Source: Escherichia coli (GTDB lineage: Bacteria > Pseudomonadota > Gammaproteobacteria > Enterobacterales > Enterobacteriaceae). Taken from it: a stretch of DNA of 64,000 bases. Below the pieces are notes generated by a model that did not search any database, had not been told where the DNA came from, and saw only the letters and a list, made by a program, of their open reading frames with translations. A program made the translations under genes and the position numbers. The first letter of the stretch is position 1. Each line of letters opens with the position of its first letter. The stretch is from assembly GCF_041886205.1 (NCBI RefSeq), contig NZ_CP169029.1; one strand, given 5' to 3'. Shown one piece after another: positions 2,985 through 48,669 of this stretch.

Positions 2985-4334
2985 ATGTCTGAAATTGTTG
3001 TCTCCAAATTTGGCGGTACCAGCGTAGCTGATTTTGACGCCATGAACCGCAGCGCTGATATTGTGCTTTCTGATGCCAACGTGCGTTTAGTAGTCCTCTC
3101 GGCTTCTGCTGGTATCACTAATCTGCTGGTCGCTTTAGCGGAAGGGCTGGAACCTGGCGAGCGATTCGAAAAACTCGACGCAATCCGCAATATCCAGTTT
3201 GCCATTCTGGAACGTCTGCGTTACCCGAACGTTATCCGTGAAGAGATTGAACGTCTGCTGGAGAACATTACTGTTCTGGCAGAAGCGGCGGCGCTGGCAA
3301 CGTCTCCGGCGCTGACAGATGAGCTGGTCAGCCACGGCGAGCTGATGTCGACCCTGCTGTTTGTCGAAATCCTGCGCGAACGCGATGTTCAGGCACAGTG
3401 GTTTGATGTACGTAAAGTGATGCGTACCAACGACCGATTTGGTCGTGCAGAGCCAGATGTAGCCGCGCTGGCGGAACTGGCCGCGCTGCAGCTGCTCCCA
3501 CGCCTCAATGAAGGCTTAGTGATCACCCAGGGATTTATCGGTAGCGAAAATAAAGGTCGTACAACGACGCTTGGCCGTGGAGGCAGCGATTATACGGCAG
3601 CCTTGCTGGCGGAGGCTTTACACGCATCTCGTGTTGATATCTGGACCGACGTCCCGGGCATCTACACCACCGATCCACGCGTGGTTTCCGCAGCAAAACG
3701 CATTGATGAAATCGCGTTTGCCGAAGCGGCAGAGATGGCAACTTTTGGTGCAAAAGTACTGCATCCGGCAACGTTGCTACCCGCAGTACGCAGCGATATC
3801 CCGGTCTTTGTCGGCTCCAGCAAAGACCCACGCGCAGGTGGTACGCTGGTGTGCAATAAAACTGAAAATCCGCCGCTGTTCCGCGCGCTGGCGCTTCGTC
3901 GCAATCAGACTCTGCTCACTTTGCACAGCCTGAATATGCTGCATTCTCGCGGCTTCCTCGCGGAAGTTTTCGGCATCCTCGCGCGGCATAACATTTCGGT
4001 AGACTTAATCACCACGTCAGAAGTGAGCGTGGCATTAACCCTTGATACCACCGGTTCAACCTCCACTGGCGATACGTTGCTGACGCAATCTCTGCTGATG
4101 GAGCTTTCCGCACTGTGCCGGGTGGAGGTGGAAGAAGGTCTGGCGCTGGTCGCGTTGATTGGCAATGACCTGTCAAAAGCCTGCGGCGTTGGCAAAGAGG
4201 TATTCGGCGTACTGGAACCGTTCAACATTCGCATGATTTGTTATGGCGCATCCAGCCATAACCTGTGCTTCCTGGTGCCCGGCGAAGATGCCGAGCAGGT
4301 GGTGCAGAAGCTGCATTTTAATTTGTTTGAGTAA
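2985..4334 (+). CDS. lysC: Lysine-sensitive aspartokinase III
   Basis: 449-aa ORF starting MSEIVVSKFGGTSVADFDAMNRSADIV; aspartokinase with C-terminal ACT domains. Confidence 0.98.
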   Translation: MSEIVVSKFGGTSVADFDAMNRSADIVLSDANVRLVVLSASAGITNLLVALAEGLEPGERFEKLDAIRNIQFAILERLRYPNVIREEIERLLENITVLAEAAALATSPALTDELVSHGELMSTLLFVEILRERDVQAQWFDVRKVMRTNDRFGRAEPDVAALAELAALQLLPRLNEGLVITQGFIGSENKGRTTTLGRGGSDYTAALLAEALHASRVDIWTDVPGIYTTDPRVVSAAKRIDEIAFAEAAEMATFGAKVLHPATLLPAVRSDIPVFVGSSKDPRAGGTLVCNKTENPPLFRALALRRNQTLLTLHSLNMLHSRGFLAEVFGILARHNISVDLITTSEVSVALTLDTTGSTSTGDTLLTQSLLMELSALCRVEVEEGLALVALIGNDLSKACGVGKEVFGVLEPFNIRMICYGASSHNLCFLVPGEDAEQVVQKLHFNLFE

Positions 4335-4346
4335 TATTTCCCTACT

Positions 4347-4377
4347 GGCGTATAACGCTCACCAATTGTTATACGCC
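4347..4377 (+). terminator. Hairpin 3' of lysC (possible terminator)
   Basis: 10-bp perfect stem ggcgtataac / gttatacgcc with an 11-nt loop, 13 nt after the lysC stop. No clear U-run. Confidence 0.4.
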
Positions 4378-4478
4378 ATCCTCACTGAAAATATAGATTA
4401 AATAATATCTGAAAAATAAAATCACTCCTGTAGAACAGTATTATAATCACCGAAAAATATTATTTAACAGGAGTGTTA

Positions 4479-5405
4479 ATGGCTACTTTAATGGAAAAAG
4501 ATGCACTTTTAAATGGCACCAGTCAGTGCATCGCGTTTTTATCAAATATCGTTGATAATTGCTCAGTTTCGTCACGTCAGGATTCAGGCGATGATCTCAC
4601 ACGATTAGTCAGCTATCGCGATTATCTTTACTCTACCCCCGCTGAACTTGTTGATTTTACACAGGGAAAGAGTCACCTTCAGCAGATTAGAACTCAATAT
4701 CAGCATGAATTCAACAATACTACGCATTCAGAAAATAAAGCATCTTTTGATTCTATTTGGCAGCGTCTGACAAATCATGAAGTCACACCGCAACAGCATC
4801 CCATTGGTTTTGTTTTAGGTGGGCAACCCGGAGCAGGTAAATCATCTCTGATTGAATTAGCCAAAAGAGAGACAAAAGATAATATAATGATTATTAACGG
4901 TGATGATTTTCGATTTCTACACCCTGATTTTAATTATATCTACCAAAATTATGGGGATGATTTTGTTACCCATACAGCGAAATTTTCCGGCGAAACGGTC
5001 GAACGTGCAATTGAGAGAGCGATAGTCAGTAAACTCAACATTGTTGTCGAAGGAACATTTCGTAATGCCGCTACGCCGTTACAAACATTAAAAAAACTCA
5101 AAGATGCAGGCTACCAAACAGAAGTCATGATAAAAACAACCTCAGCGGCATTAAGCTGGGAAAGCACCAATGAACGGTATAATAAGGACAAAGAGGCGGG
5201 AAATATTGCCCGAAAAGTGGATAAAAACCACCATGATATCGTCACCGGTTTGCTGGCAGAAAATGCCCGCAAGGTGTTTGCTTCGAACCTGTCAGATAAG
5301 TTTGCGGTGTATTCGCGTGAGAAGATGATATTTAGTTCACAAGCGGCAACGAATGACGATATTGCAACGCTTATACAGAATGAAATCAGCGGGAATACAC
5401 AATAA
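4479..5405 (+). CDS. ezeT: Zeta-toxin-family P-loop kinase with an N-terminal extension of about 100 aa (EzeT-like single-chain toxin-antitoxin candidate)
   Basis: ATG at 4479 lies 5 nt after AGGAG (4469-4473). Walker A GGQPGAGKSS is at 4818-4847. The downstream IINGDDFRFLHPDF motif resembles the zeta/PezT catalytic Asp region. There is no separate epsilon-like ORF upstream. The symbol is assigned from recalled domain architecture, not from an alignment. Confidence 0.7.
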   Translation: MATLMEKDALLNGTSQCIAFLSNIVDNCSVSSRQDSGDDLTRLVSYRDYLYSTPAELVDFTQGKSHLQQIRTQYQHEFNNTTHSENKASFDSIWQRLTNHEVTPQQHPIGFVLGGQPGAGKSSLIELAKRETKDNIMIINGDDFRFLHPDFNYIYQNYGDDFVTHTAKFSGETVERAIERAIVSKLNIVVEGTFRNAATPLQTLKKLKDAGYQTEVMIKTTSAALSWESTNERYNKDKEAGNIARKVDKNHHDIVTGLLAENARKVFASNLSDKFAVYSREKMIFSSQAATNDDIATLIQNEISGNTQ

Positions 5406-5431
5406 TAATAAGAGCTGATGGCGTGAAATAA

Positions 5432-5452
5432 CGCCGGGCATCACGCCCGGCG
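5432..5452. terminator. GC-rich hairpin between the convergent kinase and NTase genes (possible bidirectional terminator)
   Basis: cgccgggc-atcac-gcccggcg is an 8-bp stem. The NTase stop codon (5441-5443) sits in the loop. No U-runs on either side. Confidence 0.4.
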
Positions 5453-6241
5453 CATTACCGTCTGGTACATTAAGCTATCCAGTTCCTTAACGTCCCCTTC
5501 TCTGCTATCCGGTAACAGCGGTGGAATTTCCCCACGCGCCAGTTCCGCACGAATAAACGCATGTAACAATGGACGGCGCGGACCATATTCCGCTTCTCCT
5601 GCGCGCTGTTTACGTCCCAGTAATTCGTCTATTTCTGCACGTAACGGCGCATCAAGTTCACTTCCCGCCAGTAGCTCAGCAAAGCGCATTGGCGGCACGC
5701 CTTTTCCCGCTTCGACCCAGCGCACGGCCAGCAGCGGACGCAGCACGTAAAAGTATTTTTTCAGTCGAACTTCATCGCCCTGCAAATATCCGCGGAAGTT
5801 TTTCTGCGCCATCGAATAGTAATGCCAGCGCGCACGCAGCGGAGAAAACCACATTGGGACCATTGCCTTAAGCGCCGTTATCGTTTCTTCATCTTGTTGA
5901 TAGACCACCGGAGAATCCAGCCATTCTATCAGCGTCGGGTTCGCGCCTTTCAATAATCCCAGCGCCTTACGCCACTCCCAACCGGAAACATCTAACTCGT
6001 CGTCGATGGGCAGCTCGATAACATCGCGCGGCGGCTCCACCCGCAGATACCATTCCAGCGGGTGAACATACAAAAACCGTACATCGTAGTCGCTGTCGGG
6101 CGAGGCAAACCCCCAGCCGCGGCTCCCGGATTCACAGGCATACAGCACTTTCACGCCGTAGCGCCGTTCTATTTCTTTTAACTGCTGCGATACCCGTTCG
6201 CGCATCGCAGCACTGACTCCATTTAATGGCATGTTACTCAC
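5441..6241 (-). CDS. Pol-beta-superfamily nucleotidyltransferase, COG3541/PF10127 (RlaP)-like
   Basis: 266-aa ORF with the NTase signature GSRGWGFASPDSDYD (6083-6127; hG[GS]-x9-13-DxD). A helical region follows (WEWRKALGLLKGANPTLIEWLDSPVVY). The GTG at 6241 overlaps the upstream stop; an alternative ATG is at 6232. Confidence 0.75.
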   Translation of the reverse strand: MSNMPLNGVSAAMRERVSQQLKEIERRYGVKVLYACESGSRGWGFASPDSDYDVRFLYVHPLEWYLRVEPPRDVIELPIDDELDVSGWEWRKALGLLKGANPTLIEWLDSPVVYQQDEETITALKAMVPMWFSPLRARWHYYSMAQKNFRGYLQGDEVRLKKYFYVLRPLLAVRWVEAGKGVPPMRFAELLAGSELDAPLRAEIDELLGRKQRAGEAEYGPRRPLLHAFIRAELARGEIPPLLPDSREGDVKELDSLMYQTVMRRA

Positions 6242-7365
6242 CCTTTGATATTAACCAACCCATGCAGAACCTGATCCAGACCGCCAAATACAGAGATGTT
6301 ATCGATCCGCTCAGCCACTCTCTCCAGCGTTTCTAGCTCTTTTAAACGCAACGCTACCGGATTGTTCTCCATGACTTTGGCGGTGTTCAGTAACGAGCGC
6401 GTCGCTGCCGTTTCTTCACGTCGGCGAATCACATTCGCCTGCGCAGATTTCTCCGCCTCAACCAGCTGCGCAAGGATATTTTTCATATCGCCAGGCAGGA
6501 CGATATCTTTCACCCCTAATGAAGCAATCTCCATACCAAATGGCAACATGCGCGATTTCACCTGTTCGCTGACAACGTCATCAATGACCTGTTTATCTTC
6601 CAGCAGTTCATCCAGCGTACGAGTACCTACCGCTTCACGCAGGGCAAATTGCAATTCCCGATACAAATGATCAATCGGCTTCGTTAACTGACTAAATGCT
6701 AATAACACGTCGCTGTAGCGCCAGTTAGCCGCGAGGTTAATCCGCAGATTGACCTTATCTTTCGTTAAGATTTCTTGCCCGCTGACTTCCAGTACCTGCA
6801 AGCGGGTGTCAACCACTTCAGTTTCAACCAGATGGTTAATTTTCCAGTACGCGGTAAGCCCCGGCGGTAACAGCGCCTGCGTTTCACCATCGATTTTCAG
6901 CACGCCTACATGCCAGGCCGGAACCTGCACCGTCAGTATCGCATCGCGGCCTTTAACAACTCCTTTGCGCCGTGGCTGTAATACCGCATTCATCACCTCC
7001 GTTTGTACCGGGACTTGCTGCGTATTCATCCGCACCAGCGTCAAATCATCCTCTACACGCCAGTACAAACGACGCGTTGATGGCAGCAGGATCTCCAGCA
7101 AAATACCGTCCATATACAACGCCCCGGCTTCAGTCTCCGACAAGTCTGCCACCAGGCAATATTTCTCCACCCAATCAGGCTGAAAGCGGCGCAAATAGTC
7201 CGCCAGCACGTCGGGAACTTCGCTACCATCCAGCGTAATCAGCAACACTTCCGGGGTATTAAACCAGGGTAAAAAATGCTCGCCTGCATGTAGCACTTTG
7301 TAGTAATCGCCGTTTCTGGAGAGTAATGCCAGCTGATCTTTTCTTACGCTTATTTTTTTAATCAT
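6238..7365 (-). CDS. SPFH/Band-7 (stomatin/prohibitin/flotillin/HflKC) domain protein with no obvious membrane anchor
   Basis: 375-aa ORF. The C-terminal half carries classic SPFH motifs (QEILTKDKVNLRINL, LREAVGTRTLDELLEDK, FGMEIASLGVKDIVLP, AEKSAQANVIRRREETAA, NPVALRLKELETL). AAGGA lies about 8 nt before the ATG at 7365. No long hydrophobic segment is visible. Confidence 0.8.
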   Translation of the reverse strand: MIKKISVRKDQLALLSRNGDYYKVLHAGEHFLPWFNTPEVLLITLDGSEVPDVLADYLRRFQPDWVEKYCLVADLSETEAGALYMDGILLEILLPSTRRLYWRVEDDLTLVRMNTQQVPVQTEVMNAVLQPRRKGVVKGRDAILTVQVPAWHVGVLKIDGETQALLPPGLTAYWKINHLVETEVVDTRLQVLEVSGQEILTKDKVNLRINLAANWRYSDVLLAFSQLTKPIDHLYRELQFALREAVGTRTLDELLEDKQVIDDVVSEQVKSRMLPFGMEIASLGVKDIVLPGDMKNILAQLVEAEKSAQANVIRRREETAATRSLLNTAKVMENNPVALRLKELETLERVAERIDNISVFGGLDQVLHGLVNIKG

Positions 7366-7518
7366 TATCTATTCCTTGCTTAACAGCCGTCGCGGAAGCA
7401 GACACGAAGCGACAGGGGAATTCCCTTTTGCCTGTTACCCGGCGTCTTTATCGGCGACGTTATCGGGGATCGCTGACTGCGCAATCCCTCATTTTTTATT
7501 TAATAAGTTACAACCAGT

Positions 7519-7650
7519 ATTCATTTCAGGAATGAATGTGGGAATCGAACCCATAATTGGCGTCAAAGGCTGACGGAACACGCCCGGAAAACAGCCTGAC
7601 CGTTCCTGGTGTGCCGACGGGGTTTAACCCCCTTTGAAATTCAGTTTCAA
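7519..7650 (-). ncRNA. Candidate tRNA-like non-coding RNA upstream of the SPFH-NTase operon
   Basis: The minus strand has a canonical T-arm, aUGGG-UUCGAUU-CCCAc (7554-7538). Acceptor-like pairing joins 7645-7639 to 7537-7531 (6 of 7 bp). A cgtc/gacg-closed long arm spans 7619-7561, and there is a small GGGG/CCCC hairpin. The boundaries and the fold are hand-drawn, not computed. Confidence 0.4.
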
Positions 7651-7893
7651 CGCATAGGAGTTATTGCGAGAATCGTGCCAGAAGTAAAAAAAACACCTAA
7701 TCAAATGAAAAATAAAGATTTAATAAATTATTGTTTTTTATTGGGGGAAAACTTTTCGCTAAATTTGTATCTGTATTTATCATCAATTATCAAGAAAGAT
7801 AAATATTTCAGAAGAGAATAAAGGAATATTATCAGTTCTGCTTGCAAATGAATTCCCGTACACTGAATCCATCGGCTCACTGAGGGCACCATC

Positions 7894-8166
7894 ATGGCAC
7901 TCCCCCGTATTACCCAAAAAGAGATGACTGAACGCGAGCAGCGTGAACTTAAAACACTGCTGGATCGGGCGCGGATTGCGCATGGTCGCGTACTGACCAA
8001 CTCCGAAACCAACAGCATTAAGAAAGAGTACATCGATAAATTAATGGTTGAGCGTGAGGCTGAAGCAAAAAAAGCCCGCCAATTGAAGAAAAAGCAGGCT
8101 TATAAACCGGATCCTGAAGCGTCATTTAGCTGGTCAGCAAATACGTCGACGCGCGGCAGGCGCTGA
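7894..8166 (+). CDS. yjbD: DUF3811-family small basic protein YjbD
   Basis: 90-aa ORF starting MALPRITQKEMTEREQRELKTLLDRAR. Convergent with and abutting rluF, as in K-12. Confidence 0.9.
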   Translation: MALPRITQKEMTEREQRELKTLLDRARIAHGRVLTNSETNSIKKEYIDKLMVEREAEAKKARQLKKKQAYKPDPEASFSWSANTSTRGRR

Positions 8167-25825: not shown

Positions 25826-25945
25826 ATGCCTGGCAGTTCCCTACTCTCGCATGGGGAGACCCCACACTACCATCGGCGCTACGGCGTTTCACTTCTGAGT
25901 TCGGCATGGGGTCAGGTGGGACCACCGCGCTACGGCCGCCAGGCA
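25826..25945 (-). rRNA. rrfE: 5S ribosomal RNA
   Basis: The reverse complement reads tgcctggcggccgtagcgcggtggtcccacctgacccc...ctgccaggcat, 120 nt. Confidence 0.98.
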
Positions 25946-26037
25946 AATTCTTTTTTATCAGACCGCTTCTGCGTTCTGATTTAATCTGTATCAGGCTGAA
26001 AATCTTCTCTCATCCGCCAAAACACCTTCGGCGTTGT

Positions 26038-28941
<2,904 letters not shown>

Positions 28942-29134
28942 TCACAACCCGAAGATGTTTCTTACGATTCATCATCGTGTTGCGAAAATTTGAGAGACTC
29001 ACGAACAACTTTCGTTGTTCAGTGTTTCAATTTTCAGCTTGATCCAGATTTTTAAAGAGCAAATATCTCAAACATCACCCGAAGATGAGTTTTGAGATAT
29101 TAAGGCAGGTGACTTTCACTCACAAACCAGCAAG

Positions 29135-29210
29135 TGGCGTCCCCTAGGGGATTCGAACCCCTGTTACCGCCGTGAAAGGGCGGTGTCCTGGGCCTCTAGA
29201 CGAAGGGGAC
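29135..29210 (-). tRNA. gltV: tRNA-Glu (UUC) in the 16S-23S spacer
   Basis: Reverse complement gtccccttcgtctagaggcccaggacaccgccctttcacggcggtaacaggggttcgaatcccctaggggacgcca, 76 nt. Confidence 0.98.
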
Positions 29211-29295
29211 GTATCAGTCTGCTTCGCAAGACGCCTTGCTTTTCACTTTCTATCAGACAATCTGTGTGAGCACTGCAAAGAACGCTTCTTTAAGG

Positions 29296-30837
<1,542 letters not shown>

Positions 30838-42686: not shown

Positions 42687-42710
42687 GCCCCATTTGCGGG
42701 GCTAATTTCT
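42687..42710 (+). terminator. Probable rsd terminator
   Basis: gcccc-atttgc-ggggc hairpin followed by taatttctt. Confidence 0.5.
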
Positions 42711-42796
42711 TGTCGGAGTGCCTTAACTGGCTGAGACCGTTTATTCGGGATCCGCGGAACCTGATCAGGCTAATACCTGCGAAGGGAACAAGAGTT
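42707..42796 (+). promoter_or_regulatory. TPP (thi-box) riboswitch of the thiCEFSGH operon
   Basis: Conserved thi-box core ctgagaccg...ggaacctgatcaggctaatacctgcgaagggaac, with P1 pairing tcttgt/acaaga. Confidence 0.88.
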
Positions 42797-42881
42797 AATC
42801 TGCTATCGCATCGCCCCTGCGGCGATCGTCTCTTGCTTCATCCGTCGTCTGACAAGCCACGTCCTTAACTTTTTGGAATGA

Positions 42882-48249: not shown

Positions 48250-48634
48250 GACGGAATGTAAGAACGTAAATTTATTCCGAGCCGCTACGGAAGATGAAAA
48301 ACGCAAGGTTGTTGAAAGCGTTGTGTTTTTTTATGGTAGTGCCGTCAGCAGGAATGTTGTCCAGGGCGAAAAGCTTCTTCCTCGTTTCGCCCTGCCTTTC
48401 TTAAAAATTCCGTAATGCAAAGTCTGAAGCCATCGCCTGTTGAGCAATGAAAGAGATCTGATTGTAAGAGAGTAAATACTCAACTATGATAGAGACGAAA
48501 ATAAGAACACATGTTCTCATCTTCCAGGATGCAGCAGACTGAAGAAATTCAGACATCCCGCAACCTGCGATTATCGCAAGGTCAAGGCAAAGTCCGGTAA
48601 TGGCGTTCTGAATACCAGAGATAATTCTCTGGCG

Positions 48635-48669
48635 AAACCCACCTTAAGGTGGGTTTTGTTATTTTGAGG
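48635..48669 (+). terminator. Rho-independent terminator on the plus strand, about 390 nt past thiH (3' end of a thiH-downstream transcript, possibly the sRNA SroH)
   Basis: aaacccacc-ttaa-ggtgggttt hairpin followed by tgttatttt. I recall that K-12 has the sRNA SroH in the thiH-yjaZ spacer, but I cannot define its 5' end from the sequence. Confidence 0.6.

Follow-up and report, generated by a model that had tools for sequence, protein, structure and literature searches.

The interval between the lysine-sensitive aspartokinase gene lysC and a gene pair encoding an SPFH protein and a nucleotidyltransferase (NTase) of the RlaP family in Escherichia coli raises the question of what is specified by the AT-rich gene located between them, and of whether this gene works together with its neighbours. 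The interval was analysed in a stretch of 64,000 nucleotides from contig NZ_CP169029.1 (RefSeq assembly GCF_041886205.1), hereafter called the window. An earlier interpretation of the window, made from the DNA letters alone and referred to here as the sequence-only reading, had taken the gene at positions 4479-5405 to be probably ezeT or a close relative, and had considered a functional link to the SPFH-NTase pair. We conclude with high confidence that the gene is an ordinary natural allele of ezeT, encoding a chromosomal, self-inhibited, single-polypeptide toxin-antitoxin that is independent of the SPFH-RlaP operon.

The deduced protein aligned without gaps and over its full length with WP_000212693.1, 299 of the 308 residues (97%) being identical. 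This reference protein represents the validated EzeT, which is sited near lysC (PMC10532202). In E. coli 2013C_3653 the accession is annotated in the corresponding position, preceded by lysC and followed by the NTase/SPFH pair. Given the 97% identity to the validated EzeT and the same lysC-adjacent locus, the gene is therefore ezeT, as the sequence-only reading had supposed, and nothing contradicts this identification. The two proteins have in common the locus by lysC, the length of 308 amino acids, a kinase domain that is 99.6% identical, and the combination of an N-terminal cis-antitoxin with a zeta kinase in the absence of a separate antitoxin gene. They differ by the substitutions T14A, V25I, R33H, D39A, T41K, S65I, H66L, I70V and N235S, with the residue of the window protein given first. 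The finding itself is already known, since ezeT was characterised in 2015 and the window carries a 97%-identical allele. The coding sequence and its parts are located as follows.

4479..5405, + strand: ezeT coding sequence, 308 amino acids plus stop, from ATG 4479 to TAA 5405 with an intact frame
4479..4727, + strand: N-terminal cis-antitoxin domain (residues 1-83), with the boundary taken from the published deltaN83 and 1-82 constructs (PMC4803016)
4728..5402, + strand: zeta/PezT-type UDP-N-acetylglucosamine (UDP-GlcNAc, UNAG) kinase domain (residues 84-308), assigned by phmmer and Foldseek
4818..4847, + strand: Walker A motif or P-loop, GGQPGAGKSS (residues 114-123)
4890..4931, + strand: IINGDDFRFLHPDF motif (residues 138-151), with the catalytic Asp142 aligned with Asp67 of zeta and Asp66 of PezT

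An alternative GTG start is possible at 4473, two codons 5' of the ATG at 4479; the latter was chosen because all homologues, stand-alone antitoxins included, start with MATLMEKDALLNG. The reading frame of 308 codons had been noticed for its AT-rich DNA, and the measured GC content of 40.5% is indeed well separated from that of lysC (54.5%), the NTase gene (54.8%) and the SPFH gene (50.2%). The absence of a small adjoining antitoxin gene was likewise borne out by the list of open reading frames (ORFs), in which the sole entry near ezeT, at 4243-4401, lies mostly within lysC. The gaps between the lysC stop (4334) and the ezeT start and between the ezeT stop and the NTase stop (5441) measure 144 bp and 35 bp, and a separate antitoxin gene would therefore not fit.

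The assignment of the C-terminal part to the zeta kinases is supported by profile, sequence and structure comparisons. The Pfam family Zeta_toxin (PF06414) was matched at 139.2 bits (cut-off 22.3, E 1.5e-40) over profile positions 9-189 of 199, and the match begins near residue 101, in agreement with the roughly 100 residues that had been seen to precede the kinase core. A phmmer search of the PDB returned PezT (2p5t, E 5.1e-33) and zeta (1gvn, E 5.4e-27), followed by generic P-loop ATPases with E-values above 0.07. Low similarity to EzeT or to the zeta proteins, named in the sequence-only reading as grounds for abandoning the identification, was thus not observed. Both kinase motifs listed in that reading were recovered, the Walker A motif at the predicted residues and the catalytic aspartate D142 within the sequence NGDDF. 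Across 39 homologues, the P-loop residues G114, G115, Q116, P117, G120 and K121 are invariant, conservation reaches 90% or more at G118, A119 and S122, and S123 is variable; E191, T193, R195, R233 and R245 are also invariant, and D142 is at least 90% conserved. The HMMER alignment with zeta paired K121 with K46 (K45 in PezT), D142 with D67, E175 with E100, E191 with E116, T193 with T118, R195 with R120, T203 with T128, R233 with R158 and R245 with R171, so that every catalytic or UDP-GlcNAc-binding residue of zeta that was checked is kept in the window protein. Roles of zeta E100, E116, T118, R120, T128, R158 and R171 in binding UNAG and ATP were reportedly described by Meinhart in 2003 and Mutschler in 2011.

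An AlphaFold2 model of the full-length protein, built on the 39-homologue alignment, reached a predicted local distance difference test score (pLDDT) of 90.5 and a predicted template modelling score of 0.89. Its kinase part matched zeta (1gvn_B) in Foldseek with an E-value of 1.6e-15 and a root-mean-square deviation of 1.7 A over 218 columns, and PezT (2p5t) with a template modelling (TM) score of 0.81.

Zeta toxins convert UDP-GlcNAc into its 3'-phosphate (UNAG-3P), which inhibits MurA and leads to lysis, and the catalytic residue Asp67 deprotonates the 3'-OH of the sugar (PMC5923241). The truncated EzeT protein deltaN83 is toxic, permeabilises cells and causes accumulation of UNAG-3P, with toxicity appearing only below 30 C and absent at 37 C (PMC4803016; PMC4826407). 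By analogy with these published data on the 97%-identical reference, the window allele would be expected to possess UNAG 3'-kinase activity and lytic toxicity. According to the proposed mechanism, the C-terminal part of about 225 residues, a P-loop kinase of the zeta/PezT type, would when unrestrained use ATP to phosphorylate the 3'-OH of UDP-N-acetylglucosamine, and the resulting UNAG-3P would block MurA and hence peptidoglycan synthesis, with cell lysis as the consequence.

Among characterised systems, PezAT of Streptococcus pneumoniae and epsilon/zeta of pSM19035 share with EzeT the kinase fold (Foldseek TM scores of 0.75-0.81), the P-loop, the catalytic Asp and the UNAG residues, as well as the toxin mechanism of UNAG 3'-phosphorylation followed by MurA inhibition. 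EzeT differs from both in that it is about 30% identical, that its antitoxin is fused in cis and not separately encoded, that its N-domain is without detectable sequence similarity to epsilon or PezA, and that no helix-turn-helix or omega-type regulator is present. The ng_epsilon1/ng_zeta1 system of Neisseria gonorrhoeae and AvrRxo1 also belong to the zeta-type kinase superfamily and involve phosphorylation of a sugar hydroxyl (PMC5923241), but ng_zeta1 is directed at the 4'-OH of UDP-N-acetylmuramic acid (UNAM) and UNAG, and the antitoxins of ng_zeta1 and AvrRxo1 differ as well. AvrRxo1 appeared as a distant Foldseek match to the EzeT model, and its phosphorylation of NAD is indicated by the title of a paper referenced in PMC5923241. 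PezT and zeta are much more closely related to EzeT than ng_zeta1 or AvrRxo1.

The N-terminal domain contains three helices in the full-length model, at residues 4-27, 30-52 and 60-73, all predicted with high confidence, followed by a linker at about residues 79-89 with the lowest confidence and thereafter by the kinase domain. Residues 1-82 of EzeT rescue deltaN83 in trans (PMC4803016), and the epsilon antitoxin is a three-helix bundle covering the ATP site of zeta (PMC5923241). Neutralisation of the kinase by the N-domain, as published for the reference EzeT, would by analogy also apply to the window allele, in which the three-helix domain of about 83 residues would keep the kinase inactive in cis. 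Protease cleavage, chaperone binding and modification have been proposed as triggers of EzeT release (PMC4826407).

The N-domain is homologous to stand-alone ORFs that occupy the antitoxin position in two-gene relatives of ezeT, which lends indirect support to its neutralising role. ORFs of 82 amino acids located upstream of zeta kinases share 50-57% identity with residues 1-79 of EzeT (E 7e-31 and 2e-27), and the kinases of such split forms (P0010-P0013) are 68-70% identical to EzeT residues 86-308. In the enterobacterial split form the end of the antitoxin gene overlaps the beginning of the toxin gene by 11 nucleotides, the two being in different frames. In EzeT one continuous frame covers both parts and includes a short additional linker, NTTHSE, and the junction falls at the published boundary of deltaN83. 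The split pairs are found at the following loci.

L010:7763-8801 and L011:7763-8801: split pairs among ArdA, PsiA and ParB_N genes
L008:7763-8699: split pair on a metagenome scaffold carrying chromosomal genes of enterobacterial type
L034:2753-3891: split pair of Neisseria wadsworthii, an 81-amino-acid ORF and then the kinase with 2 nucleotides between them, and an adjoining PrlF/YhaV pair

Judged by its typical gene content, the context of L010 and L011 is a putative plasmid leading region. The 81-amino-acid ORF of N. wadsworthii matched the EzeT N-domain in hhalign with a probability of 98.4% (E 4.9e-15). Fused relatives comprise a full-length protein of Pseudocitrobacter (59% identical), the more distant P0111 (37% identical) and P0251. 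The N-domain alone, searched against 1.84 billion representative proteins, gave only 14 matches, including stand-alone proteins of 74-88 amino acids and one fused form of 334 amino acids. The scan of genome contigs yielded 11 loci, so that the taxonomic census of fused and split forms is thin. Both halves of the two-gene relatives are thus homologous to EzeT, and the difference consists in two genes in place of one; no experimental characterisation of these relatives was found in the literature consulted. We infer that the EzeT N-domain originated as a separate antitoxin of about 80 amino acids, the gene of which adjoined or overlapped that of the toxin before the two were fused in frame. The published proposal of an origin of EzeT by fusion of a bicistronic operon accordingly gains comparative support from the split relatives, which also represent natural controls for experiments on the release of cis-inhibition.

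The possibility that ezeT is carried by plasmids or phages was also considered. A megablast search of plasmids with the split operon gave no match, full-length matches of ezeT in PLSDB were confined to two mislabelled records of chromosome size (4.8 Mb and 1.0 Mb), and the phages searched contained distant PezT-like genes and no close ezeT homologue. Plasmid or phage carriage of ezeT was rejected on the grounds that the PLSDB records are chromosome-sized and the phage genes distant.

Comparison with the reference allele (L004:3145-4068) by codon revealed that 14 of 85 codons differ in the N-domain and 2 of 223 in the kinase domain, with 24 of 266 and 46 of 375 codons (9-12%) differing in the neighbouring NTase and SPFH genes, respectively. 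In relation to more distant Escherichia alleles, the N-domain is 78% and the kinase domain 92% identical. The mosaic divergence suggests recombination within or around ezeT, and the pattern of variation in the N-domain is typical of faster antitoxin evolution. The natural variation clustered in the antitoxin domain could be used for mapping the inhibitory interface.

Whether the intact frame of the window might be a relic, devoid of activity or expression in this strain, has to be weighed against these data. The gene does decay elsewhere: O145:H28 strain RM12581 (L013) carries a frameshift in ezeT, CUWW06 (L014) an IS1 truncation, and PT62 (L003), in which this region otherwise matches the window at 100% identity, an IS1 element within the 5' end of the gene, with the SPFH-NTase pair intact in all three. 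A relic would also be compatible with the lack of published toxicity at 37 C and with the weak ezeT promoter, for which a -10 but no -35 element was described (PMC4803016). The window gene, however, combines its intact frame with all catalytic residues and with the near identity of its kinase codons to those of the reference allele. Moreover, the kinase domain differs from that of Escherichia sp. MOD1 by 18 non-synonymous and 48 synonymous codon changes, which is consistent with purifying selection, and ezeT is kept in 1433 of 5426 complete E. coli genomes, with 1430 of these matches spanning at least 80% of the gene. We therefore regard a non-functional relic as very unlikely.

Several observations count against the view that the window carries an ordinary self-inhibited EzeT acting independently of its neighbours. 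Of the nine substitutions that distinguish the window protein from the reference EzeT, eight fall within the antitoxin domain, where they might affect inhibition. The N-domain gave no Pfam match, Epsilon_antitox (PF08998) included, when eight family members were searched at E-values up to 10, and a profile search of the PDB returned neither an epsilon or PezA chain nor any other solved chain. The single-sequence AlphaFold2 model of the isolated N-domain was poor (pLDDT 67.8), with Foldseek matches only at E-values above 2. Since no sequence similarity of the N-domain to epsilon or PezA was detected, an epsilon-like mode of inhibition is regarded as putative. Furthermore, ezeT and its neighbours are tightly associated in E. 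coli. Among the 5426 genomes, the SPFH-NTase pair was detected in 1631 and all three genes were contiguous in 1424. The independent segregation that the sequence-only reading had named as an argument against functional linkage was thus found in one direction, the pair being present without ezeT in about 200 genomes, and hardly in the other, as ezeT occurs without the pair in at most about 9 of 1433 genomes.

This co-occurrence is explained by one shared chromosomal locus, which alone does not rule out a coupling; with all copies at the same locus, the E. coli data therefore say little on function. The neighbouring elements are arranged as follows.

4335..5440, no strand: ezeT cassette, 1.1 kb, 39% GC
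5441-6241, - strand: gene of the RlaP-family NTase (Pfam RlaP, E 3.4e-95)
6238-7365, - strand: SPFH gene (Pfam Band_7, E 8.9e-27)
5441..7365, - strand: SPFH-RlaP operon, neighbour context outside the ezeT system

With ezeT on the + strand and the NTase and SPFH genes on the - strand, the layout is therefore convergent, as had been described. The proximity to an RlaP-family NTase and the almost constant co-occurrence in E. coli might indicate that EzeT is a functional part of an SPFH-RlaP RNA-repair module, serving as an RNA end-healing kinase, for example as an undiscovered RNA 3'-kinase that makes RlaP products ligatable by RtcB. Zeta kinases do act on a 3'-OH (PMC5923241), a preprint on RlaP states that the RNA 3'-kinase is still undiscovered (PMC12776372), and the distant structural match to the zeta-like AvrRxo1, with NAD as the substrate named in a paper title, would fit this idea.

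The comparison with other genera argues strongly against such a role. In the yjbD-lysC interval of Citrobacter, Klebsiella, Enterobacter and Franconibacter, rtcR is located divergently from an SPFH gene, which is followed by RtcB in two of the four genera and then by RlaP, the NTases being 78-87% identical to that of the window. The 3' ends of rlaP and lysC lie about 40 bp apart in these genera, with one hairpin between them and no zeta kinase. Conversely, no SPFH or RlaP homologue was detected near EzeT or zeta-kinase relatives at 19 non-Escherichia loci (about 14 distinct contexts), for which mostly several kb per side, and up to 7-8 kb where the contig allowed, were inspected. The convergent orientation means that ezeT is not co-transcribed with the pair, and its GC content of 40% is set against 50-55% in the flanks. 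In E. coli, ezeT is pseudogenised, disrupted by insertion sequences or swapped for a phage-tail cluster while SPFH-RlaP stays intact. The conserved UNAG residues and the published accumulation of UNAG-3P by EzeT (PMC4803016) likewise count against an RNA-repair role, and similarity to polynucleotide kinases is generic: Pnkp1 was matched with an E-value of 0.11 in the P-loop region only, and PNKP and Cth Pnkp gave Foldseek E-values of 1e-3 to 7e-3 as opposed to 1e-15 for zeta.

An RNA-repair kinase is accordingly considered extremely unlikely, and this candidate was rejected on the four-genus synteny, the homologue neighbourhoods, the generic similarity to polynucleotide kinases and the conserved UNAG residues. 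A variant of this idea, to which we give almost no credence at all, holds that EzeT was co-opted by the SPFH-RlaP module and acts on an RNA or nucleotide 3'-OH besides or instead of UDP-GlcNAc, its cis-inhibition being released by the same signal of RNA damage that activates the sigma54 promoter and the structured leader of the operon described below; if true, the co-opted EzeT would supply the 'missing' RNA 3'-kinase. The functional link between ezeT and the SPFH-NTase pair envisaged in the sequence-only reading thus found no support in the four-genus synteny, in the neighbourhoods of the relatives or in the comparison with polynucleotide kinases. The linkage is very probably positional, because four genera keep SPFH-RlaP without a zeta kinase and the EzeT relatives occur elsewhere without SPFH or RlaP.

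The independence of ezeT from the operon is also reflected by the inferred history of the locus. In K-12 MG1655 (L015), 122 bp separate lysC and yjbD in place of window positions 4335-7763 (3.4 kb); this arrangement represents a deleted state and not an ancestral empty site, because other genera hold the syntenic locus. The ezeT cassette was found with the same synteny in the cryptic-clade strain Escherichia sp. MOD1-EC7003. According to the best reading of these comparisons, an old RtcR-type SPFH-RlaP operon would have lost rtcR, and rtcB where present, in Escherichia, and the 1.1-kb AT-rich ezeT cassette (4335-5440) would have been inserted between lysC and rlaP within this genus. The apparent 'toxin plus RNA-repair' island would hence consist of two layers, an older SPFH-RlaP operon of the RtcR type, ancestral and syntenic across Enterobacteriaceae, and a younger, Escherichia-specific ezeT insertion, and with two layers of different age a guilt-by-association argument between ezeT and SPFH-RlaP is therefore unsound. 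The ezeT gene would be a self-contained AT-rich cassette and not a working part of the operon. No convincing direct repeats that might represent target-site duplications were detected around the cassette.

Escherichia has also lost a gene for an SBF-like transporter that is located beside rtcR in the other genera, the sigma54 promoter being kept (loci L028, L029, L031 and L032; window 5441-7893). Remnants of rtcR or of the transporter gene were not detected in the window by tblastn.

A 16.5-kb phage-tail cluster takes the place of ezeT in about 200 E. coli genomes, with the junction at about window position 5422, just past the ezeT stop. The cluster comprises genes for a Mor activator, holin, lysis proteins, sheath, tube, tape measure, baseplate and fibres; it is present in E. 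coli IMT16316 (L016:22618-39110) and at L001, L002 and L012, and some copies are IS1-inserted or cut short. In having no annotated capsid or replication genes, it resembles a tailocin.

With regard to its physiological role, ezeT could belong to the abortive-infection systems, in which case the N-domain would be displaced or cleaved by a factor that the phage encodes or that infection induces, for instance a protease or binding protein, and the infected cell would lyse. The variability of the lysC-rlaP slot, with its phage-tail cluster, and the occurrence of split relatives in a putative plasmid leading region, near other toxin-antitoxin and methyltransferase genes, are in keeping with this idea; the linker, for which the model confidence is lowest, is plausibly exposed, and the published triggers include protease cleavage, chaperone binding and modification (PMC4826407). 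However, PADLOC returned no credible match for ezeT, the best being PDC-M04B with an E-value of 0.0026 and no significant stretch, no phage was found to carry a close homologue, and the literature consulted contained no experimental report of phage defence by EzeT. A plain selfish or addiction role accounts for the same data, and a function in phage defence is unlikely in our view. Annotation as a defence system was rejected on the PADLOC result; the NTase and SPFH proteins were without any match in PADLOC-DB.

The remaining elements detected around the ezeT cassette concern its expression and its boundaries.

4346..4378, + strand: hairpin with a perfect 11-bp stem, directly 3' of lysC at the left edge of the ezeT cassette
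4442..4447, + strand: putative -10 hexamer TATAAT, 31 nucleotides 5' of the ezeT ATG, with no recognisable -35 element
4469-4473, + strand: Shine-Dalgarno sequence AGGAG before the ezeT ATG
5432..5452, no strand: GC-rich hairpin CGCCGGGC-ATCAC-GCCCGGCG at the convergent ezeT and rlaP gene ends

A scan with the two-hexamer consensus detected no sigma70 promoter 5' of ezeT, which is compatible with the published promoter consisting of a -10 element only and is no proof of it. The hairpin at 4346..4378 is likely the lysC terminator. From about position 5422 onward, the hairpin at 5432..5452 included, the DNA is common to genomes without ezeT. The -10 hexamer is flanked by a 20-nucleotide inverted repeat with 80% complementarity (4423-4442 / 4456-4475), the right arm of which holds the Shine-Dalgarno sequence (CACTCCTGT...ACAGGAGTG); this repeat could be a candidate operator or a hairpin sequestering the Shine-Dalgarno sequence.

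The SPFH gene is preceded by a sigma54-type promoter (TGGCACGATTCTCGCA) at 7665-7680 on the - strand. The promoter is followed by a structured leader of about 290 nucleotides (region 7366-7690, - strand) containing a T-arm-like sequence, GGGTTCGATTCCC, at 7540-7552. Conservation of the leader amounts to 76-78% in Citrobacter, Klebsiella and Enterobacter, and in Franconibacter only short segments of it match. RNAalifold predicted 64 pairs, of which 19 show compensatory changes. The leader gave no Rfam match at E-values up to 1, and ARAGORN detected no tRNA in 7300-7950. Judging from these features, the SPFH-RlaP operon may possess in this leader a Y-RNA/YrlA-like element that is as yet undescribed.

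No Rfam family was matched in the region 4300-8000, where the only hit was a sub-threshold match to SorX over the terminator hairpin (E 0.23). Elsewhere in the window, Rfam identified ordinary annotated RNAs at 2697-2893, 546-695, 25828-30837, 42704-42804 and 48497-48657, namely the lysine riboswitch 5' of lysC, STnc430, an rRNA operon with tRNAs, a TPP riboswitch and sroH.

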